The notes below the pieces were generated by a model, which searched no databases, was not told the origin of the DNA, and saw nothing but the letters and a program-made list of their open reading frames with translations. Positions 774-18,132 of a DNA stretch of 25,097 nucleotides are shown here, one piece after another. This DNA comes from Acidobacteriota bacterium (GTDB taxonomy: Bacteria > Acidobacteriota > UBA4820 > DSQY01), in assembly GCA_049967655.1 (NCBI GenBank), contig JBMFSH010000004.1, positions 1 through 25,097 of the forward strand, in the 5' to 3' direction. Position numbers and translations under genes: made by a program. Position 1 is the first letter of the stretch, and every line of letters starts with the position of its first letter.

Positions 774-1490
774 CTACTTCGTCAGCGCTTTAACCTTCTC
801 CATCAGGCGGTCCTTGAGCGAGGGCGCCGGGCTGCCCGGCTGGGTCTGCACGGGCTGCGCCAACGCGTTCTCGTAACCGGCCAGCTTGGCCAGGTGGTTG
901 AATTTCATGCGCACCTTGGGCAGGGCCGCGTCCACGCCGGGCTTGTCCTTGCTTTCCGCCGCCGTGGCCAGCGCGGCCACGTCCGCGGAGAGTTCGGAGG
1001 AGAGCTGTCTCTCCTTGGCGTCACCGCTCCTTTGGACCTGGTCGGCGAGCGCGGCCTGCCTGAGCTTCATGGCGGGCGCGAGGTTTCTCACCAACCCGTA
1101 GCGGCCCTTGGCGTGGGCCTCCCGCGCCTGGTCGAGCACGAGGCTGAAGTCCGAGAAGGCCTCCATGGAGGCTTTCTTCGCGGCGCTCATCTCCTTCTTG
1201 GTGGAGGCTCCCACGCCCACCAGGCTGAAGCCGCCGGAGGCCGCCGCGTCGGAGATGTCCATGACGGAGGTCTTGGTGTCGTCGAACTGCACCATCACCA
1301 TACGGCTGGAAGGATCGGTGGCGGCATCCAGGACGCCCGGGACGGCCTTCAGCTCCGATTCGAGCTTCTGGGCGGCCGCGGGCGTGTCCATGGCCTCCGC
1401 CTTGAAGGTCGCGACGCGCTGGGCGCCCAGCGCGCCCATGGTGAACAGGAGCCCCGCAAACCCTAACCAACAAGCTTTCTTGATCTGCAT
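774..1490 (-). CDS. Exported protein with an HMA-like (heavy-metal-associated fold) domain lacking the CxxC motif, plus a helical C-terminal region
   Basis: 238-aa ORF with AGGAGG RBS and a signal-peptide-like N-terminus. The segment 'ATFKAEAMDTPAAAQKLESELKAVPGV...VQFDDTKTSVMDISDAAASGGF' follows the HMA pattern. Confidence 0.7.
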   Translation of the reverse strand: MQIKKACWLGFAGLLFTMGALGAQRVATFKAEAMDTPAAAQKLESELKAVPGVLDAATDPSSRMVMVQFDDTKTSVMDISDAAASGGFSLVGVGASTKKEMSAAKKASMEAFSDFSLVLDQAREAHAKGRYGLVRNLAPAMKLRQAALADQVQRSGDAKERQLSSELSADVAALATAAESKDKPGVDAALPKVRMKFNHLAKLAGYENALAQPVQTQPGSPAPSLKDRLMEKVKALTK

Positions 1491-1564
1491 CGAATCCTCC
1501 TGTCGGAATACTCAGACTGTAGTCCCTCGCCGGCGGAGGCAACAGGCCTCGGGCGGGTGAATGC

Positions 1565-2869
1565 CTAGCCGATCGCTCCCAGGAGCAGGCCGTGCACCTC
1601 CTCGATGTGCGGCCGCTTACCGGGCAGGGACCGGTTCGATAGGAGGAAGGCGTCGTGGCGGTTGTGCATGCCGGTGAAGTGCGTGCGGGCGAAGAGTTCG
1701 GCCTTCTTCGGGTTTCCCTTCAGGTCGAAGCCGTCGGAGGTGAGCAGGACCAGGTCGGGAGCCTTGTCGAACTCCGGCCCCTCGTAGATCTGCTCGGGGA
1801 AGAAGACCTCCTTGATGAAGCGCCGCCCCTCGTACTCGAGCCCCAGGAAAAAGCCCTTCAGCTCCTCCCTCAGCGCCGGCACCTCCCCCTCCTCCACGCG
1901 GCCCTTGGGGTAGCGGCCCTTGCGGTGGATGTAGATCCGCGACGGATCGAGGGCGAAGGCGCGGGCCTCGGGGTGGATGTCCGCGAAGGAGTCGGGCGGA
2001 TCCTTTTCCCACTTGAGGAAGCCGCCGTCCACGAGATGCCTGTTCACCAGGACCTCCGTCTCGATGGCGCAGAAGCCGTGGTCGCTCATGAGCAGGCAGA
2101 GGTCCTCCCCGCCCAGGCGGTCGAGCAGCCGCCCCACGACGGCGTCGGCCTTGGCGTAGTAAACCATGGCCCGCTCGTGGTTGGGGTGGGACGGGTCGGC
2201 CACGGCGTGCCACTGGAAGTGCTGGAGCCGGTCCGTCCCCGTGATGACGGCCACGAAGAGGTCCCATTGCTCGGTCTTCCAAAAGTGGTCGAAGGCCCGC
2301 TCCCGCGCGGCGAGGGTCTCGTCGAGATCCCGGTAGAGAAAGTCGGCATCGGCCGCCCTGCTCGTATCCACGTCGATGCGGTAGCCCATCTTCTCCAGCT
2401 CCGGCAGGATGGAGGGCGGATGGACGGCCTTCTTGAGATCGATGGCCACGAAGCCGGAGACGAGCACCCCCTCGTGGGGCCGGGCGGGGTAGGTGCCGGG
2501 GAGGTTGAGGACCACCGAGCGCTTGCCCCGCTTGCCGATGGTGTCCCAGAGGGGCTCGGCCTTCAGGTGGGGGTAGCTCGGGAAAACCATCTGGTAGGTG
2601 CCGGGCTTCAGGTCCATGAAGCCGTAGATACCGTGGCGCGCGGGGTTCGTGCCGGTCATGAAGGAGGACCACGAGACCGACGAGATCTCCGGAAGCGTGG
2701 CGTCCATCTGCTGGAAGTGCGAGGGACCCGCCGCGGCGGCCCTGCCCAGGTTCGGCGTGACCCCCTTCGCGATCAGGGTTTCCAGTAAGGTGTACGGCAC
2801 CCCGTCCAGGCCGATCAGCACCGCGCGGGGCTTGGTGGATCTCGTGAAGAGCTTGCTTAGAAGAGCCAT
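1565..2869 (-). CDS. Alkaline phosphatase superfamily protein (nucleotide pyrophosphatase/phosphodiesterase type, COG3379-like), Ser nucleophile
   Basis: Motifs LIGLDG, PEISSVSWSSFMTG, DRLQH, MSDHGF and GMH; GGAGG RBS. Confidence 0.88.
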   Translation of the reverse strand: MALLSKLFTRSTKPRAVLIGLDGVPYTLLETLIAKGVTPNLGRAAAAGPSHFQQMDATLPEISSVSWSSFMTGTNPARHGIYGFMDLKPGTYQMVFPSYPHLKAEPLWDTIGKRGKRSVVLNLPGTYPARPHEGVLVSGFVAIDLKKAVHPPSILPELEKMGYRIDVDTSRAADADFLYRDLDETLAARERAFDHFWKTEQWDLFVAVITGTDRLQHFQWHAVADPSHPNHERAMVYYAKADAVVGRLLDRLGGEDLCLLMSDHGFCAIETEVLVNRHLVDGGFLKWEKDPPDSFADIHPEARAFALDPSRIYIHRKGRYPKGRVEEGEVPALREELKGFFLGLEYEGRRFIKEVFFPEQIYEGPEFDKAPDLVLLTSDGFDLKGNPKKAELFARTHFTGMHNRHDAFLLSNRSLPGKRPHIEEVHGLLLGAIG

Positions 2870-2882
2870 GGGGCCTCCGAAG

Positions 2883-2916
2883 AAGGTGATGTGAGGAAGT
2901 GAGGAAGTTAGGAAGG
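2883..2916. repeat. 8-bp tandem tract (GAGGAAGT)2 TAGGAAGG, the downstream inverted arm of the four-helix-bundle cassette
   Basis: 2891-2907 is the exact 17-nt reverse complement of 3385-3401. Confidence 0.85.
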
Positions 2917-2940
2917 AAAGAAAGCCCCCTCATGGGTTAG

Positions 2941-3366
2941 TCAGCGATAACGGCGGAGTAGCCCGTTGATCATCGCCCCGATTTTTCCGGACGAATCGAG
3001 CAATAATCTCGTTGACTCTGCGGGAAGATACCCTAGTCGGCCGGCAAGGATCACTTGAGTCTCCAGTTCGCTCAGTGAACCTCGCGCAATGAAGAAGAAC
3101 TGGCGTCTCTCGGCACCACCCCTCCTTGCGACGCCCTCCGCCAGGTTGGAAGGGACGCTCACTGCCGCACGCCTCATTTGGGAGGCCAGTCCATAAGTCT
3201 CGTGAGCCGGGAAACGACTGGAAGCCTCGTAAATGGCCAGGACGTAGTCCATGGCTTCTTTCCAACATTGCAGATTCTCGTGGGGCCAAACGATCCTCTC
3301 CCCGGTCCCGTTCGACGCAGAGTGGTATGCTCCTTCACCATATTCCGCTTCCCTTTCCCATTTCAT
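2941..3366 (-). CDS. Four helix bundle protein (TIGR02436 / 23S rRNA intervening-sequence protein family, Avd-like fold)
   Basis: Motifs 'HENLQCWKEAM', 'FPAHETYGLASQMRRAAVSVPSNLAEG' and 'FFFIARGSLSELETQ'. Start placed at ATG 3366 after GGGGGAG; the ORF-track start at 3393 lies inside the repeat. Confidence 0.92.
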   Translation of the reverse strand: MKWEREAEYGEGAYHSASNGTGERIVWPHENLQCWKEAMDYVLAIYEASSRFPAHETYGLASQMRRAAVSVPSNLAEGVARRGGAERRQFFFIARGSLSELETQVILAGRLGYLPAESTRLLLDSSGKIGAMINGLLRRYR

Positions 3367-3384
3367 CCGCTCCCCCTTCCCCGT

Positions 3385-3464
3385 CTTCCTCACTTCCTCA
3401 CTTCCTAACTTCCTCTCTTCCTAACTTCCTGACTCCCTAACTTCCTAACTCCCTATCTCCCCCA
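3385..3464. repeat. 8-bp tandem array, about 10 degenerate units of CTTCCTMA, the upstream arm of the four-helix-bundle cassette
   Basis: cttcctca cttcctca cttcctaa cttcctct cttcctaa cttcctga ctccctaa cttcctaa ctccctat ctccccca; overlaps the PHP stop codon. Confidence 0.95.
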
Positions 3465-4287
3465 CCAGCCCCTCCCAGCACCCCATCGGCACGTCGAGCC
3501 CACCCTCGCCGACGCCGAGGCGGATGCCGGGGCGGTTGGTGCCGTGGAAGTCGGAGCCGCCGGTGACGAGGAGGCCGTAGCGCTTCGCGAGGGCGAGGAA
3601 GCGCCGGGTGTCTTCGGGCGTGTGGTTTCGGTAGTGGCATTCGAGGCCCTGGAGGCCGGCCTCGACGAGCGCTTGAACGATGGCGTCAAGAGCCTTCTCG
3701 TCAGCCGCCTGGAGCTGGAGGGGGTGGGCCAGGACGGCCACGCCGCCGGCGGCCCGAATGAGGGCGATGCTCTCCTCGGGCGAGAGCCTTGCCTTGTCCA
3801 CGTAGGCGGGACGGCCCTTGGCGAGGTAGCGGTCGAAGGCCTCCTGCCGCGTTGCCACGTAGCCCTTGTCCACGAGGACCTTGGCGAAGTGCGGCCGTCC
3901 CACGAGGCCGCCCCCGGAGACCGCCTCGACCTCGGGCAGGGTGAGGGCGACGCCGAGGTGGCCCAGCATCTCGACGATCTTCGGATTGCGCTCGCCACGC
4001 CAACGCTGCACGGCGGTGAGCCGCTCCAGAAGCGGGGGGCTGGTCTCGTCGACGCCGTATCCCAGGATGTGCATGGTGCCCGGCTGGTACTCCGCGGAGA
4101 TCTCCAGGCCGGAGAGGAAGGCGATCCCCTGCCGGTGGGCCTCCGAACGGGCCTGGGCCACGCCCTCCACGGTGTCGTGGTCCGTGAGGGCCATGTGGGT
4201 CAAGCCGGCGGCCTTGGCTTCGCGCACGAGCTCGGCGGGAGTGAAGGTGCCGTCCGAGCAGGTCGAGTGCACGTGCAGGTCGATCAT
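3445..4287 (-). CDS. PHP-domain metal-dependent phosphoesterase (TrpH/YciV, COG0613 type), probable 3',5'-nucleoside bisphosphate (PAP) phosphatase
   Basis: Motifs DLHVHSTCSDG, ALTDHDT, GLEIS, HILGY, GRPH, LAHP and GGSDFHG. The substrate is inferred from adjacency to cysC. Confidence 0.88.
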   Translation of the reverse strand: MIDLHVHSTCSDGTFTPAELVREAKAAGLTHMALTDHDTVEGVAQARSEAHRQGIAFLSGLEISAEYQPGTMHILGYGVDETSPPLLERLTAVQRWRGERNPKIVEMLGHLGVALTLPEVEAVSGGGLVGRPHFAKVLVDKGYVATRQEAFDRYLAKGRPAYVDKARLSPEESIALIRAAGGVAVLAHPLQLQAADEKALDAIVQALVEAGLQGLECHYRNHTPEDTRRFLALAKRYGLLVTGGSDFHGTNRPGIRLGVGEGGLDVPMGCWEGLVGEIGS

Positions 4288-4314
4288 GGTCTTCGAAGGA
4301 GTCCTTTGGGGGCC

Positions 4315-4390
4315 GTGATGAGGAGATGAGGTGATGAGGGAAGGGGGCCGGCTCGCGAGCAGCCTTGCCTCCTAGTCCCCTAGTCCCCTA
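4315..4390. repeat. Bipartite intergenic element: (GWGATGAG)3, a GC-rich spacer, then (CCTAGTCC)2.5
   Basis: Read directly. The spacer and arm junction are homologous to 5079-5116. Contains the cysC stop codon. Confidence 0.85.
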
Positions 4391-5014
4391 CCCCAAATAC
4401 CCAAGATCCCGGAGCCTTGCGGCGACGGCGGCCTCCTCGTCGGCACCGTAGTCGTCGCCGGGCACCGGCGGCACCAGCTCCAGCATCTCCAACGTCTTGA
4501 CAATGCGGGCGCAGGACTGCTCCGGCGGCTCGTCGCCGGTGTAGACTACGACCTCGGGCTTGGTGGGCGGCTCGTAGGGGTCGGAGACGCCGGTGAAGTG
4601 TGGGATCTCACCGGCCAGCGCCTTCTTGTAAAGCCCCTTCACGTCGCGCTCCATGAGCTTCTCCATGGGGCAGTCCAGGTAGGTCTCCACGAAGGTGGCC
4701 CGCTGCTCCACGCGGCTCCTGATCTCGTCGCGAACTTCCCGGTAGGGGGAGATGGCCGCCGTGATGGCGCAGACGCCGTTGCGCGCCAGCAGGTTGGCCA
4801 CGTAGCCGATGCGGCGGATGTTGGTGTCCCGGTCCTCCTTCGAGAAGCCGAGCCCCTTGCTGAGGTTCGTGCGCACCTCGTCGCCGTCGAGCACCTCCAC
4901 GGGCACACCGCGCTCCAGGAGGCGCTCCTCCACCAGCTTGGAGAGGGTGGACTTGCCCGAACCCGACAACCCCGTGAACCAGAGAACGAAGCCTTTGCCG
5001 TTGCCGTTAGCCAT
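4388..5014 (-). CDS. cysC: Adenylyl-sulfate (APS) kinase with C-terminal '[16 protein letters not shown]' extension
   Basis: Motifs [12 protein letters not shown] (P-loop), [29 protein letters not shown] and [14 protein letters not shown] 5014 after AAGGAG. Confidence 0.95.
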
Positions 5015-5044
5015 GGTCACTCCTTCGAAGTGGTCCGTTGGGAG

Positions 5045-5175
5045 AAGGTGACTAGGTGATTAGGTGATTAGGAAAAAAGGGCGGCCCGCCAGCGGGCTTG
5101 CCTCCTAGTCCCCTAGTTACCTAGTTACCTAGTCCCCTAGTCCCCTAGTCCCCTCATCACCTACTCACTTACTGA
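5045..5175. repeat. Bipartite intergenic element: about 4 x TAGGTGAY, a hairpin spacer, then about 9 x CCTAGTYM
   Basis: aaggtgac taggtgat taggtgat tagg ... cctagtcc cctagtta cctagtta cctagtcc cctagtcc cctagtcc cctcatca cctactca cttactga; the arms are approximate reverse complements. Confidence 0.92.
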
Positions 5176-5182
5176 CCTCTCC

Positions 5183-6565
5183 TCACCCCACCACGTTCCC
5201 GATCATGTCCTCGGGCACGTCGACGCCGAGCGTCCGCAGCACGGTGGGGGCCACGTCGTAGATCTCCACGCCCTCGCGGCGGCCGGGCGTCACGCCCGGT
5301 CCCTTCAGGATGAACATCCCGTACTGCGCGTGGTTGGCGTCATCGGGGCCGGTGTCGTTCTCGAAGACGTGGATGGCGCCGGTCCCGACGCTGCCCGCGC
5401 TGCGCCAGGCCAGGTCGCCGAAGTAGACGATGAGGTCCGGCGGCACCCCGTTCACAGTCCGGTAGATTTCCTCCGGCTTGAAGGCGCGGGTGCCCATGGG
5501 CCTGCCCTGGTCGTCGCCGAAGCCTTCCAAAAGGTCCCGGATGCGGTCCCGCACCTTCTCGTAGTCGGCGGGCTCCACGGTCCCCTGCGGCTCGCGCCCC
5601 TTCACGTTCAGGAAGATCCGCGAATAGTAGCCCCCCTCGCCCCAGCAGGCGGTGCGGCTCCAGTCGATCATGGAAGTTTTGAGAGGGCACTGGCCCGTGG
5701 GCTCTTCCTTGAGGTGCAGGAGCCCCTCCCGCCGGAACAGCTCGTTCACGCAGACCGCCCCGTGCATGGTCCGTGCACCGTGGTCGGAGACGACCCACGT
5801 CTGCGTCCCCTCGGGGAGCAGGTCCAGCACCCTTCCGATCTCCCCGTCCAGGTAGCGGTAGTAGTCCCGGATGGCGAACTCGAAGCGGTGGCCCTTCTCG
5901 TAGAGGCGGTGCCCCTTGTCGTGATAGCGCCAGAAGCCGTGGTGAATGCGGTCCACCCCCATCTCGACGAAGATGAAGAAGTCCCACGGCTTGCTCTTCA
6001 CCCACTCGCGGACCACCTTGAACCGCCGGCGCGTCATGACGGTGATCTGCTCCAGGAGGCGCTCCTTGTCGTCGGTTCGGAAGTCCTTGACGTCGATGAT
6101 GTAGTCGCCCTCGGCGATGCGGTCCAGCTCGTGCTTGGCCTCGTCGGGCCAGGTGTACTGCACCTCCTTCGATGGCGTGAGGAAGGAGGCCACGAGGGTG
6201 CCGTTGAGCGGCTTGGGGGGGTAGGTCTGGGGCACGCCGAGGACGACGCTGCTCAGGCGGTTTCGCGAGAGGACCTGCCAAAGCGTCTTCTCCTTCACGT
6301 AGGAGGCGTTGGCGAAGTAGAGATCGTCGTAGCCGTAGCCCTTCCGGTTGCGGAAGCCGTAGAAGCCGAGGGTGCCGGGGTCCTTGCTCGTCATCATGGC
6401 CGTCCAGGCGGGCACGGTGATGGGGGGGATCGTGGACTTCATCTCGCCCCACGCCCCCTCCTCCATGAGCCGGCTCAGGTTGGGCAGCTCGCTACGCCAC
6501 TCCTCGAAGACGAGCTGCGGCGCCATGCAATCCATGCCGAAGATGAAGACCTTTTTCGCTCTCAT
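5183..6565 (-). CDS. Alkaline phosphatase superfamily protein (nucleotide pyrophosphatase/phosphodiesterase type, COG3379-like), Thr nucleophile
   Basis: Motifs IFGMDC, STIPPITVPAWTAMMT, DRIHH, VSDHG, NVKGREPQG, DDANH and IYDVAPT. ATG 6565 after AAAGGA; 6583 is an alternative start. Confidence 0.88.
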   Translation of the reverse strand: MRAKKVFIFGMDCMAPQLVFEEWRSELPNLSRLMEEGAWGEMKSTIPPITVPAWTAMMTSKDPGTLGFYGFRNRKGYGYDDLYFANASYVKEKTLWQVLSRNRLSSVVLGVPQTYPPKPLNGTLVASFLTPSKEVQYTWPDEAKHELDRIAEGDYIIDVKDFRTDDKERLLEQITVMTRRRFKVVREWVKSKPWDFFIFVEMGVDRIHHGFWRYHDKGHRLYEKGHRFEFAIRDYYRYLDGEIGRVLDLLPEGTQTWVVSDHGARTMHGAVCVNELFRREGLLHLKEEPTGQCPLKTSMIDWSRTACWGEGGYYSRIFLNVKGREPQGTVEPADYEKVRDRIRDLLEGFGDDQGRPMGTRAFKPEEIYRTVNGVPPDLIVYFGDLAWRSAGSVGTGAIHVFENDTGPDDANHAQYGMFILKGPGVTPGRREGVEIYDVAPTVLRTLGVDVPEDMIGNVVG

Positions 6566-6584
6566 GCGGGAAGTCCTTTGCATC

Positions 6585-6676
6585 GAGATGGGGAAATGAA
6601 AGGATGCCGAGATGAGGAGAGAGAAAAGAACAATCCACGCGGATGGTCCTCATCCCCTCATCACCTCATCACCTTA
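6585..6676. repeat. Bipartite intergenic element: degenerate GAGATGAG units, a spacer, then (CCTCATCM)3
   Basis: gagatggg gaaatgaa aggatgcc gagatgag ... cctcatcc cctcatca cctcatca cctta; ends at the RHH stop codon. Confidence 0.75.
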
Positions 6677-6886
6677 AAGGTACCCCATACTCTTGAGCCG
6701 CTGCCGGATGGCCTCGATCTCCTTGGCCGAGAGGGCGCCTTCCAGCTTGCCCTCCTGGTGGGAGACGAGGTCCCGAAGCACGTAGACGACGAATTCCGTG
6801 ACCGACGCAAAACCGCTCCCCTCGATGAGCACGGCCAGGTGGTCATACAGGGGTCGGGGGATCTTGAGGGTCACGCGGGGCTCCAT
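6674..6886 (-). CDS. CopG-family ribbon-helix-helix regulator with C-terminal 'EIEAIRQRLKSMGYL' tail
   Basis: Beta ribbon VTLKIP, then helices 'RPLYDHLAVLIE' and 'SVTEFVVYVLRD'. ATG 6886 has a GGGAG RBS; ATG 6898 would be nearly leaderless. Confidence 0.85.
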   Translation of the reverse strand: MEPRVTLKIPRPLYDHLAVLIEGSGFASVTEFVVYVLRDLVSHQEGKLEGALSAKEIEAIRQRLKSMGYL

Positions 6887-6906
6887 TTGCACTCCCATTG
6901 GAGTGT

Positions 6907-6935
6907 AGTGTAAGGCCGGTGAGAGGGGCTGTCAA
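6907..6935 (-). promoter_or_regulatory. Sigma70 promoter of the RHH-AlkP-cysC-PHP operon
   Basis: TTGACA (6930-6935), 17 nt, TACACT (6907-6912) on the minus strand. Confidence 0.8.
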
Positions 6936-6942
6936 GGGGGTG

Positions 6943-6991
6943 TGGAGACGGGAAACGGGAGACGCTAGACGCGATTAGGCGAAAGGCGATT
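6943..6991. repeat. 7-bp degenerate tandem tracts (GGGAGAC-type, then GGCGAWW-type)
   Basis: tggagac gggaaac gggagac gctagac gcgatta ggcgaaa ggcgatt. Confidence 0.6.
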
Positions 6992-7036
6992 GAGCGAGAG
7001 GCAGAGAGGCAACTGGCCGGAACGCGGCCCCCTTTT

Positions 7037-7096
7037 CCGTCATCCAGGTGAGCGAAGCGAGTCTAGAATCGGATTCCGGACGGGCCGGAATGACGG
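7037..7096. repeat. CGTC-type REP-like palindromic element
   Basis: Termini CCGTCATCCAGG and CCGGAATGACGG are near-perfect inverted repeats; internal hairpin TTCCGG-ACGGG-CCGGAA. Confidence 0.65.
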
Positions 7097-7152
7097 TGGA
7101 GTCTGTGACGCCGAAGGCGACCGGCCGACTCGCCCCGCTCGTGCCCGGCCAA

Positions 7153-7368
7153 TCAGTGCAGGCCGCCGCCGGCCTTCTCGGAGGCCTCCTTGAACCGGGC
7201 GAGGATCTCCCGCTCGTGGCGGAGTTCGTCCTCGGCAAAGGCCAGCAGGACCTGACGCAGACCCTCGTCCTCGCAGAGGCCCGCCGCCTCCTCGTATGGG
7301 GCGCGCGCCTGGCGCTCGGACTCCACGGCCTCCTGGAAAATCTCGAAGAGCTTCTCGGCTCGGTTCAT
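7153..7368 (-). CDS. Small ferritin-like/rubrerythrin-family protein (one helix pair)
   Basis: 'EAVESE..AR..YEEAA' and 'FAEDELRH' (ExxH); AGGGGGA RBS; 71 aa. Confidence 0.72.
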   Translation of the reverse strand: MNRAEKLFEIFQEAVESERQARAPYEEAAGLCEDEGLRQVLLAFAEDELRHEREILARFKEASEKAGGGLH

Positions 7369-7586
7369 GGAGATCCCCCTTGCATGGCGAGATTCCGAAA
7401 TTCACACGTGCCGGCGGCACCCGCTTCCGGTCCCCGGCGGCATCGCCTCATCCCCCCAGCCTCCGCGATGGAAACGCGGGTGGCTTCGGCCAGGCTCCAG
7501 GTTCACGGGGAAACGACCTCACCTGTCTCACGGGGAAGGGCCTCCCGGCCCCTCGCCCCCGCGGCCGGCGTCCCTCGGCGCGCGGG

Positions 7587-17875: not shown

Positions 17876-17902
17876 GGCGGGCCGCTGTGGGAGGGAGGGT
17901 GC

Positions 17903-18094
17903 ACAGGGGACAGGGGACAGGGGACAGGGGACAGGAAGGGACAACCGCACGGCCTACAAGTCTCTTTCGACATCACCTCATCACCTCATCCCGAAATCTC
18001 GCTTCGGCTCACCCGGAGACGCGAGACGCGACGGTCAGGGGAGGGTGGAGAGTGGAGACCACCGGCCGCCGTCTGCCGTCTGCCGTCTGCGGTC
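17903..18094. repeat. Mosaic of tandem tracts: (ACAGGGG)4, 8-mer CTCATCAC-type, GCGAGAC-type, GGAGRGT-type, about 4 x TGCCGTC
   Basis: Read directly in the rmlC-rmlD intergenic region. Confidence 0.88.
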
Positions 18095-18132
18095 CCTCTT
18101 TCAGCCATCGATTGAGGACCATCCACTCCCCC

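Follow-up and report, generated by a model that had tools for sequence, protein, structure and literature searches.

A four-helix-bundle gene between inverted arrays of 8-nt words in an Acidobacteriota operon, and its likeness to rRNA intervening sequences

PF05635 (TIGR02436) is a very large protein family with a solved structure and, to our knowledge, no assigned function. Here we analyze a gene of this family in a stretch of 25,097 nucleotides from an Acidobacteriota bacterium (G000:C4:1-25097, hereafter the window), which belongs to a draft genome, G000, of 3.14 Mb, 66.7% G+C and 147 contigs. The gene lies in an operon, between genes for a PHP-domain phosphoesterase and a type I phosphodiesterase of the alkaline phosphatase (AlkP) superfamily, and is bracketed by two inverted arrays of tandem 8-nt words that we call its arms. 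Comparison with relatives shows that gene and arms move as a unit of foreign base composition in operon junctions. The arms of different cassettes consist of different 7- or 8-nt words, yet they are mutually complementary within each cassette. On balance, we favor the view that gene and arrays together are a single inserted cassette of the intervening-sequence (IVS) type.

Several described systems share parts of this layout. Short tandemly repeated heptamers have been a puzzle since they were first seen in cyanobacteria. Correia elements of Neisseria are hairpin-forming MITEs (miniature transposable elements bounded by inverted repeats) that are cut by RNase III. Like Correia-type MITEs, the elements described here are small intergenic inserts with inverted repeats, are co-transcribed with their neighbours and have gene-less copies that are far more numerous than any autonomous form; they differ in having no known transposase-bearing parent, no target-site duplication evident at the one junction compared, and arms that are internally repetitive. 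In REP/REPIN-RAYT systems (repetitive extragenic palindromes and their associated tyrosine transposases), a single-copy gene is flanked by inverted copies of a repeat that is dispersed without the gene in intergenic DNA, with several lineages per genome. The combination of a gene with dispersed inverted repeats, in several lineages per genome, recurs here, and a RAYT-like gene occupies the same junction in one relative (G009, locus L014). However, the present protein is a small four-helix bundle without a transposase fold (the gene matches PF05635 only, and no IS200/IS605-type Y1 transposase), the repeats are tandem 7/8-mers rather than palindromes of 20-40 nt, and gene-less copies are mostly single arrays rather than hairpin doublets.

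The locus also resembles the 23S rRNA IVSs that bear an open reading frame (ORF), as in Leptospira and in helix 45 of Coxiella burnetii: in each case a gene of the PF05635/S23p family lies within stem-forming terminal inverted repeats, the base composition is unlike that of the host, the distribution is sporadic and points to horizontal transfer, and the ORF often decays. The Coxiella IVS carries an S23p ORF and has a terminal stem of 28 bp; RNase III excises it in vitro, and mobility has been proposed for it (PMC4990558). The present cassette lies between PHP and phosphodiesterase genes of an mRNA operon and not in helix 25 or 45 of a 23S rRNA gene, and its arms are tandem arrays of 7-8-nt words, which the available part of PMC4990558 does not report for the IVS. 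In addition, the upstream arm gives the clipped gene its stop codon, and hundreds of gene-less arrays share the words. RNase III cutting has been shown for the IVS, whereas for the operon cassette it is only predicted.

A third likeness, at the level of the four-helix-bundle fold (TM 0.82-0.83), is to Avd (PDB 4dwl, 8ub7), which PF05635 has been said to resemble (PMC10053308). In the ribonucleoprotein of diversity-generating retroelements (DGRs), Avd forms a basic pentamer and binds both its reverse transcriptase and a defined RNA element (10.1101/2023.10.23.563531). In contrast, no reverse transcriptase, template or variable repeat lies near the cassette, and no reverse transcriptase was found in most cassette-bearing genomes. 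Finally, the arrays recall the orphan heptamers of heterocystous cyanobacteria (short tandemly repeated repetitive sequences, STRRs), Xanthomonas, Nostoc and Beggiatoaceae, in that they are intergenic tandem 7-mers at about 100-200 sites per genome, often strand-biased with respect to genes; they differ in that 24 of 60 cassettes in the order have octamers, and in that the host of STRRs is a cyanobacterium, here an Acidobacteriota. Reported examples are GGGAATC of Xanthomonas, with 70-75 convergent inverted pairs, GGGGAYT of Nostoc (PMC4692102) and TAACTGA of Beggiatoaceae (PMC4679880), and both papers interpret such repeats as G-quadruplex or translational signals. As a side observation, a cassette in a metagenome-assembled genome (MAG) of Pseudoxanthomonas (L148) has GGGAAT(A/G) arms, the same word family as the Xanthomonas GGGAATC (PMC4692102), and the solved family structure 2gsc is from Xanthomonas.

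Eighteen genes of the protein family have been reported inside cas loci, one of them between cmr3 and cmr2, and were taken to point to a CRISPR-linked function (PMC3936711). A term search of PMC4692102 and PMC4679880 gave no mention of '23S', 'intervening' or 'four-helix', and a term search of 10.64898/2026.09.22.753630 likewise gave none of the protein family. No paper linking PF05635 genes to flanking 7/8-mer arrays was found in a search made outside subscription journals and supplements; the repeat-armed PF05635 design is apparently undescribed in the literature.

The gene, its arms and its protein

The cassette comprises the following features.

3385..3465, minus strand: upstream (5') arm, about 9-10 purine-rich units GGAAGTTA/GGAAGTGA/GGGAGTYA (period 8, 8.9 copies, score 93)
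2941..3393, minus strand: four-helix-bundle gene, PF05635 (23S_rRNA_IVP) / TIGR02436, domain at 2962-3279
2883..2922, minus strand: downstream (3') arm, units CTTCCTAA/CTTCCTCA (Tandem Repeats Finder 2891-2915, period 8, 3.1 copies)

The gene product scores 115.9 bits against PF05635 (cut-off 33.8, model positions 1-106 of 106) and 107.7 against TIGR02436 (cut-off 24). Its longest ORF begins with GTG at 3393, and an in-frame ATG at 3366, which follows GGGGGAG, is the likelier start. The arms are complementary over 28 nt at 89%, over 20 nt at 95% and over 17 nt without a mismatch (2891-2907 vs. 3385-3401), the last of these being the perfect inverted match that a first-pass annotation of the window had pointed out; they pair around the ORF in both the minimum-free-energy (MFE) and the centroid fold. 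The same annotation had remarked on an excess of codons ending in A or T, and the numbers bear this out: G+C at third codon positions (GC3) is 0.62 in the gene compared to a host mean of 0.877 (standard deviation 0.049), with no lower value among 2477 host genes of at least 300 nt. It is because of this low GC3 that our codon-usage gene caller skipped the gene. All six four-helix-bundle genes of G000, with GC3 values of 0.62-0.75, fall in the lowest 2% of host genes.

The cassette abuts its neighbours closely on both sides. The downstream arm ends 5 nt ahead of the GGAGG ribosome-binding site (2878-2874) of the second AlkP gene, and this site and the start codon are kept in relatives with and without the cassette (...GGAGGCCCCATG is common to L001-L004). 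On the other side, the last codons of the PHP gene and its stop TAG (3447-3445) lie inside the upstream arm, whose word carries stop codons, and the PHP protein ends in an array-encoded tail, ...CWEGLVGEIGS*. Element-free PHP genes end in ...CWSALERAASARN (L004) or ...CWTALQNAIEGSRPN (L017), whereas every insert-bearing relative has the conserved ...CW followed by a short array-encoded tail and a stop that belongs to the word. Since the insert has replaced the end of the PHP gene its boundaries are blurred, and no target-site duplication is evident when L001-L003 are compared to the element-free L004.

The translation contains the helix motif GxxRxxxSxxxNxxE (...GLASQMRRAAVSVPSNLAEG...), which PMC3936711 names as conserved in the family. 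Positions Q34, S41, E48 and E71 show no variation in our family alignment, and R37 and N45 almost none. The protein matches XCC0516 (PDB 2gsc) in sequence (E 1.8e-28), and its AlphaFold2 model (pLDDT 96.8), a bundle of four helices, superimposes on 2gsc with a TM score of 0.92, a root-mean-square deviation of 0.8 Å and 46% identity. The 2gsc protein is a homopentamer (PMC4990558), and from an identity of about 50% to it we infer that the present protein is a pentamer. The model's match to Avd comes with a sequence identity of 6-9%; a weak sequence similarity is also seen (PHROG 'Avd protein of DGR', E 1.7e-5).

Turnover, distribution and words

We compared 20 loci with cysC-PHP-AlkP genes, a gene order that is conserved throughout the order. 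The PHP-AlkP junction is free of any element in the congener G002, with a gap of 29 nt and a full-length PHP tail (...ALERAASARN*), and is array-free also in L017, L019 and L020. It is an empty hairpin in L013 and L016. Where it is filled, three gene/word lineages are found: a GGAAGTKA-armed gene in G000, G014 and G017, a GGGGACTA-armed gene in two congeners, G001 and G003, as well as four further genomes (two of the genes being decayed), and a GGTGAKTA-armed gene in three genomes. The decayed genes at this junction are those of L006 and L012. In L014 (G009:C8), a 635-nt insert extends from the PHP stop to the AlkP start and holds an IS200/RAYT-like ORF (...PDHVHLVVE...) with REP-like palindromes at both ends, so that two unrelated gene-between-inverted-repeats systems use one site. 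The comparison of orthologous operons proposed in the first-pass annotation thus found the gene present, absent or replaced, the elements turning over among relatives. A possible match of the L013 spacer to the first 20 nt of the gene was dropped, as the shared stretch is 8-9 nt and within chance. We also note that in L013 and L018 (G022 and G006) a four-helix-bundle gene stands ahead of cysC and not behind PHP, so that the junction of this operon taken by the cassette varies from genome to genome.

Gene histories depart from those of the flanks. The G000 protein is 54.5% identical to its counterparts at this junction in congeners, compared to 88-97% for the flanking proteins, and shares 59% identity with its counterpart from another genus. 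A careful tree places the genes of G000 and G014 as sisters (support 96/87). A clade made up of the three same-genus genes, and with it vertical descent, is rejected by an approximately unbiased (AU) test (p 0.0009); the group tested was set by genus and junction, but a quick tree had been seen beforehand. The trees comprise 55 of the 60 armed loci described below, namely those whose domain reaches 85 aa or more, and 20 rows picked by hand. Flanks were compared for 74 pairs from different genomes in which alignments of 120 nt or longer, at 62% or above, were obtained on both sides; a tblastx flag for outer-flank orthology, raised by 303 of 1759 pairs, was too generous, probably owing to leftover array sequence, and was given up for this direct alignment. 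The C55 cassette of G000 and that of G024 are 95% identical in gene DNA (95-97% by segment in a global alignment) between flanks of 77-84% (73-74% there). Conversely, the C54 locus of G000 has flank DNA 93-96% identical to that of G001 and G003, a gene only 67-70% identical and a different word. In metagenome contigs from four runs that are at least 85% like the operon, the flanks are covered and positions 2989-3344 never are; one contig links 2835 to 3488 via 149 other letters. In our reading, the cassette passes between relatives independently of the genes on either side.

The design is not confined to this operon. PF05635 hits number 78 and are spread over 24 of the order's 29 genomes. We read 77 distinct loci, of which four had flanks too short to evaluate; inverted arms (score of at least 14) are present in 60 of the remaining 73, compared to 0/73 in a reversed-sequence control and 5.3% of 300 mismatched loci. 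In all 60 armed loci the best period within the range 5-12 is either 7 (36 loci) or 8 (24 loci), and both arms agree at each locus. A broader set was drawn from a species-level genome collection with an alignment of 8 sequences (A2) as query, another of 18 diverse sequences (A1) being too divergent, and is consequently biased to the main clade. Among the best 80 of at least 599 relatives, one was left out for short flanks and arms were found in 61 of 79, with 2 in the control; the period is 7 or 14 in 57. The hosts include Acidobacteriota, Pseudomonadota, Bacteroidota, Clostridia, Planctomycetota, Chloroflexota, Elusimicrobiota and a lineage of the Candidate Phyla Radiation (CPR). The repeat-armed PF05635 cassette is a widespread design.

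Within G000, arrays (at least 2.9 copies and a score of at least 40) were related to the 2712 genes (87% coding) of a crude codon-usage caller, which makes distances to start codons approximate. Periods 7 (n=130) and 8 (n=125) prevail over periods 6, 9 and 10 (12, 35 and 1, respectively). Of the 250 merged arrays, 223 lie between genes in a genome that is called 87% coding; the tandem heptamers of STRRs are intergenic too. Arrays occur in 196 of 2574 gaps (7.6%), in 8 of the 24 gaps of the window and at three of the four operon junctions, the fourth having arrays just below threshold; the operon is among the densest places in the genome. In co-directional gaps, 64 G-rich arrays lie near the upstream stop and 49 C-rich arrays near the downstream start, as opposed to 24 and 7 in the opposite arrangement, and the distance from the stop codon to the start of the array is 10 nt or less for 35 of 77 G-rich arrays. 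A second repeat family, seen in passing, has GC-rich tandem units of about 70 nt with internal palindromes, beginning GTAGCGGCCG..., and often lies beside GGAGGGT arrays (C83:1346-3455, C64:5767-6026 and C31:9918-11193 of G000).

The first-pass annotation had expected arrays to be enriched beside TIGR02436 genes, and in G000 all six PF05635 genes are flanked by inverted 7/8-mer arrays, purine-rich upstream and complementary downstream, each locus with its own word (period 8 at C65, C4 and C32, period 7 at C64, C54 and C55). Its picture of filled and empty cassettes holds insofar as gene-bearing and gene-less elements form one family in mRNA operons; as to the form of the empty members, among 169 gene-less array gaps of at most 700 nt just 13 hold a same-word hairpin, 22 have two or more non-complementary arrays and 134 a single array, so that the empty cassette proper is the minority form. 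Two of the six genes are damaged. The one at G000:C64:2558-2872 has an in-frame TAG, and the one at G000:C32:7815-7946 matches the full-length locus of G002 at 95% identity apart from a deletion of 285 bp, flanked by two short direct repeats, that has left the arms intact. Five more of the order's hits are truncated. Emptier forms thus do arise by deletion.

Periods follow the protein lineages, words less strictly so. On the protein tree the period label requires 6 changes, compared to an average of 16.5, and never fewer than 12, across 300 shuffles, and the 14 members of the window gene's clade all have period 8 and words of the form GGNRNNKA. As kin share labels, this fit reflects long co-inheritance of gene and arm type and is not evidence of specificity. 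Proteins at least 70% identical always share a word (21 of 21 pairs, nearly all orthologous). Word abundance also goes with the resident gene. GGAGGGT has 84 matches in G000, which has the cassette, vs. 16-21 in other congeners, and AAGCGATT has 128 vs. 37-53; reciprocally, GATGATR has 148 and 58 matches in the cassette carriers G003 and G001 compared to 20 and 12 in G000 and G002, and this GATGATR cassette sits at the junction where G000 has its GGAGGGT cassette. Solo arrays of G000 number 36, 22, 5, 4, 0 and 0 for the six resident words, with 13 for the GGAAGTGA variant that is also found in the C4 arms, compared to a mean of 1.7 for 54 non-resident words; as in REP/RAYT systems, a dispersed repeat flanks the gene. 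This link between allele and word among congeners suggests a lead and is not a test.

The words also supply stop codons. In 39 of 60 cassettes a stop codon falls within the word of the upstream arm read in the sense direction, compared to 16 of 60 in antisense, and the broad set shows the same trend (22 vs. 9 of 61). Because 7 and 8 are not multiples of three, an arm can close several frames: three in 29 of 60 cassettes and at least two in 47, as opposed to 5 and 17 in antisense. Stop-bearing words would provide a simple selective reason why the purine-rich arm comes first and why periods 6 and 9 are avoided, while the disuse of periods 10 or 11 is left unexplained.

The operon and its other junctions

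The remaining features of the operon, in order of transcription, are as follows.

6907..6935, minus strand: sigma-70-like promoter match, TTGACA, 17-nt spacer, TACACT (10/12 matches, by consensus only)
6674..6898, minus strand: ORF of 74 aa, first gene of the operon, no Pfam or NCBIfam match
6584..6676, minus strand: J1, gene-less hairpin, G-rich array GGTGATGA of 3.4 copies at 6648-6674, beginning at the stop TAA
5183..6583, minus strand: type I phosphodiesterase / nucleotide pyrophosphatase (AlkP superfamily) gene 1, PF01663, E 5.5e-42
5040..5182, minus strand: J2, gene-less hairpin, G arm GGGGACTA/GGTAACTA at 5104-5178 and C arm CCTAATCA/CCTAGTCA at 5046-5072
4388..5020, minus strand: adenylyl-sulfate (APS) kinase, cysC, PF01583 E 5.6e-62, NF002059 260 bits (cut-off 244)
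4288..4390, minus strand: J3, chimeric pair, G arm GGGGACTA at 4371-4390, beginning at the stop TAG, and C arm CCTCATCA at 4317-4339
3445..4287, minus strand: PHP-domain phosphoesterase, PF02811 E 2.5e-13, NF041577 231 bits (under its cut-off of 400)
1565..2869, minus strand: type I phosphodiesterase / nucleotide pyrophosphatase gene 2, PF01663, E 2.4e-38

Tandem Repeats Finder reports period-8 arrays at all four junctions (6648-6674; 5104-5178 and 5046-5072; 4371-4390 and 4317-4339; 3385-3465 and 2891-2915), as the first-pass annotation had claimed. On the mRNA strand, a purine-rich array lies at the stop codon or within a few bases of it, and a pyrimidine-rich array precedes the next ribosome-binding site. 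Two further claims fared less well. The arms are complementary at J1, at J2 and around the four-helix-bundle gene and not at J3, and the single consensus proposed for all, KAGGDRRY, conceals three distinct words: GGTGATGA, GGGGACTA/GGTAACTA and GGAAGTKA.

At J1, a partly complementary C-rich arm precedes the next start and the fold is an arm-to-arm stem of -35.7 kcal/mol (z -2.6; 2 of 200 shuffles as good); a metagenome contig of one relative (run X1) skips 6577-6648. The J2 arms likewise pair with each other (-66.2 kcal/mol, z -3.7, 0 of 200 shuffles as good), and the loop holds a terminator-like GC hairpin with a T run (5084-5097). At J3 the two arrays, G-rich GGGGACTA and C-rich CCTCATCA, lack complementarity and stay unpaired in the fold (z +1.1). 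Its G arm is the J2 word, and its C arm is the complement of a J1-type word. The J3 spacer shares with J2 a core, TAGGAGGCAAG, that is found at these two junctions only in the genome; the idea that it marks a dispersed MITE family was dropped on that account. In the congener G002, J3 is a matched GATGAGG/CCTCATC hairpin; in G000, G001 and G003 the same C arm and spacer are kept and the G arm is replaced by GGGGACTA. In the two outgroup loci examined (L019 and L020), cysC and PHP overlap or abut and no element is present. Among other genera, no fewer than three additional word families occur here. In contigs of relatives the arrays also differ by whole units, with an extra 8-nt unit at 5052 (J2) in one contig and a difference of 13 nt at 4314.

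The label RHH (ribbon-helix-helix) that the first-pass annotation had given to the first ORF could not be upheld by any Pfam or NCBIfam match. The PHP phosphoesterase is closest to 3',5'-nucleoside bisphosphate phosphatase (the NF041577 match noted above). The operon at 1565-6583 would then combine an APS kinase, a likely pAp (3',5'-bisphosphate) phosphatase and two enzymes of the nucleotide pyrophosphatase/phosphodiesterase family, a gene content that suggests a pathway of 3'-phosphoadenosine-5'-phosphosulfate (PAPS)-linked sulfation or of sulfur nucleotides. In a consensus scan of 1400-7500, the sole promoter-like match is the one just upstream of the first ORF; the scan gave no sigma-70-like site ahead of the four-helix-bundle gene. 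Three short arrays (GGAGACG x3, a 15-mer x2 and GAGAGGCA x2) lie just upstream of that promoter-like site, at 6944-7011. Elsewhere in the window, a 257-nt gap (17876-18132) holds five successive arrays, on the mRNA strand AGACGGC, ACTCTCC, GCGTCTC, AGGTGATG and CCCCTGT, and folds no better than shuffles (z +0.8 and +1.5). A PADLOC check gave no defence-family match.

Readings of the cassette

We lean towards the view that the gene and its inverted arrays are one inserted IVS-type cassette, exchanged apart from its flanks, likely a selfish insert that the host tolerates, with an Avd-like protein that probably binds the words. In such a scheme the arms would fold into a long stem around the ORF in the operon transcript, and RNase III would be predicted to cut this stem, as it does in rRNA intervening sequences, and to separate the insert from the host message. 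The pentameric protein would likely recognize tandem words, one per subunit, and this recognition may favor the spread or retention of arrays with its own word, leaving many gene-less arrays behind. New copies would likely be gained through recombination with same-word arrays that are already in place rather than via a reverse transcriptase.

A number of our results weigh against this view. All genomes are draft MAGs, and the relatives do not count as independent samples. No catalytic motif is known in the protein, and no recombinase is linked to it. As regards the stem, folding the transcript, a check proposed at the outset, gave a divided answer: the arms pair as expected, but the fold of the whole 601-nt cassette is not clearly above shuffles (z -1.57, 1 of 20). 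Among 466 arm mismatches there is no wobble bias in the sense RNA, with 104 G:T plus T:G (99 expected) and 112 A:C plus C:A (103 expected), which suggests that complementarity may be held at the DNA level or by copying rather than by selection on an RNA stem. Gene-less arrays are mostly single arms (134/169) and not hairpins. They also hold no coding remnants: when 241 array regions of G000 were compared by blastn with the interiors of 60 cassettes, all matches were array to array, and restriction to the coding part gave 2 weak matches. Most solo arrays are therefore not recent decay products, and deletion of the kind seen at C32 cannot by itself account for the approximately 190 gene-less gaps.

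The pairing of word and protein is imperfect too. A strict word-to-protein rule fails, as GGGAGAC arms flank proteins only 34-35% identical. The C55 cassette of G000 and that of G024, both GGGAGAC-armed, are accompanied by just 11 and 9 word matches in their genomes, 8 of which in each case are their own arms, while G001 has 51 GGGAGAC matches with no cassette detected. By an estimate from word tallies, about 40% of G000 arrays use words for which there is no intact resident gene. All such counts are of overlapping pattern matches in draft genomes of related organisms.

The reverse order of events deserves consideration: gene-less hairpins and arrays would be older, and a gene with short homologous arms would be dropped into them by homologous recombination after uptake of foreign DNA, such that filled forms derive from empty ones and the protein makes no arrays. 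Two unrelated cassettes in one genus do share a left breakpoint in PHP (...CWEGLV), and the 95%-identical cassette at the same junction in two genera, between flanks of 77-84%, needs some form of targeting; its arms are the longest seen, at 83-113 nt. Replacement of one arm at J3, with the other arm and the spacer kept, and the occurrence of word arrays in congeners without the matching gene also fit this history. It leaves unexplained, however, where the arrays come from, why the period tracks the protein tree (6 changes vs. a mean of 16.5 and a minimum of 12) and why words are 2.4 to 12 times more abundant in congeners with the matching gene; moreover, the G002 junction has no array, hence the array is not a fixed feature of the site. 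We judge this history unlikely, though it keeps some weight. A little less probable still, in our opinion, is that the arrays belong to a host regulatory network, as cis-acting RNA signals for processing, Rho- or hairpin-dependent termination or translational coupling, with each paralogue a word-specific RNA-binding regulator. The array polarity (64 and 49 vs. 24 and 7), the 35 of 77 G-rich arrays that begin within 10 nt of a stop, the terminator-like hairpin in the J2 loop, a word abundance that follows the resident paralogue and the binding of structured RNA by Avd would all suit such a role. Against it, elements at one junction differ or are absent among congeners, pseudogenes and truncations are common (the C64 TAG and the 285-bp deletion at C32 in G000), codon usage is foreign and sense-strand wobble bias is lacking, and selection at clipped gene ends for words with a stop codon can account for the polarity.

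Two further mechanisms have much less to recommend them. The fold and the weak sequence similarity to Avd, together with the requirement of Avd for bRT activity (10.1101/2023.10.23.563531), raise the idea of DGR-type retro-mobility, in which the Avd-like protein and a reverse transcriptase encoded elsewhere would copy the transcript or extend the arrays in the manner of telomerase; by analogy, tandem G-rich units of 7-8 nt might be taken for products of templated repeat addition. Yet only 8 of the order's 29 genomes have a hit to the reverse transcriptase family PF00078 vs. 24 of 29 for PF05635, G009 has a cassette and 90 word matches with no reverse transcriptase found, and G000 has just two partial PF00078 hits, at the contig ends of C5 and C14. 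Neither a reverse transcriptase nor a pair of template and variable repeats lies beside any cassette examined, and none is present in the window, making this route very improbable. Polymerase slippage anywhere in non-coding DNA, with adjacency to the gene incidental, could produce the unit-number differences among relatives (the 8-nt unit at 5052 and the 13 nt at 4314), and PMC4692102 cites an earlier proposal of slippage for heptamer excess. But slippage makes no complementary array on the far side of a gene, and 6/6, 60/73 and 61/79 genes are bracketed by inverted copies of one word compared to 0-2 in controls; as a full account we find it scarcely credible.

Returning to the inserted-cassette view, what this locus adds is a series at one junction that runs from no element through an empty hairpin, different gene lineages and decayed genes to another kind of element, together with a deletion step, an arm replacement, the supply of stop codons and reciprocal contrasts between allele and word. 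It ties the PF05635 family and the heptamer puzzle together in a testable way. For annotation, such inserts alter the ends of neighbouring genes and break assemblies. We put forward, as a tentative generalization that may well prove wrong, that four-helix-bundle IVS proteins are word-reading nucleic-acid binders, each allele spreading its own 7-8-nt arrays; they would form a mobile class without transposase or reverse transcriptase, whose outputs would be the rRNA IVSs, the cassettes in operons and cas loci, and the unexplained heptamer and octamer repeats of cyanobacteria, Xanthomonas, Beggiatoaceae and these Acidobacteriota. If the protein does read the word, this would represent a new way for repeats to spread and a family of programmable 7-8-nt readers, and would explain the inserts in operons, cas loci and rRNA genes.

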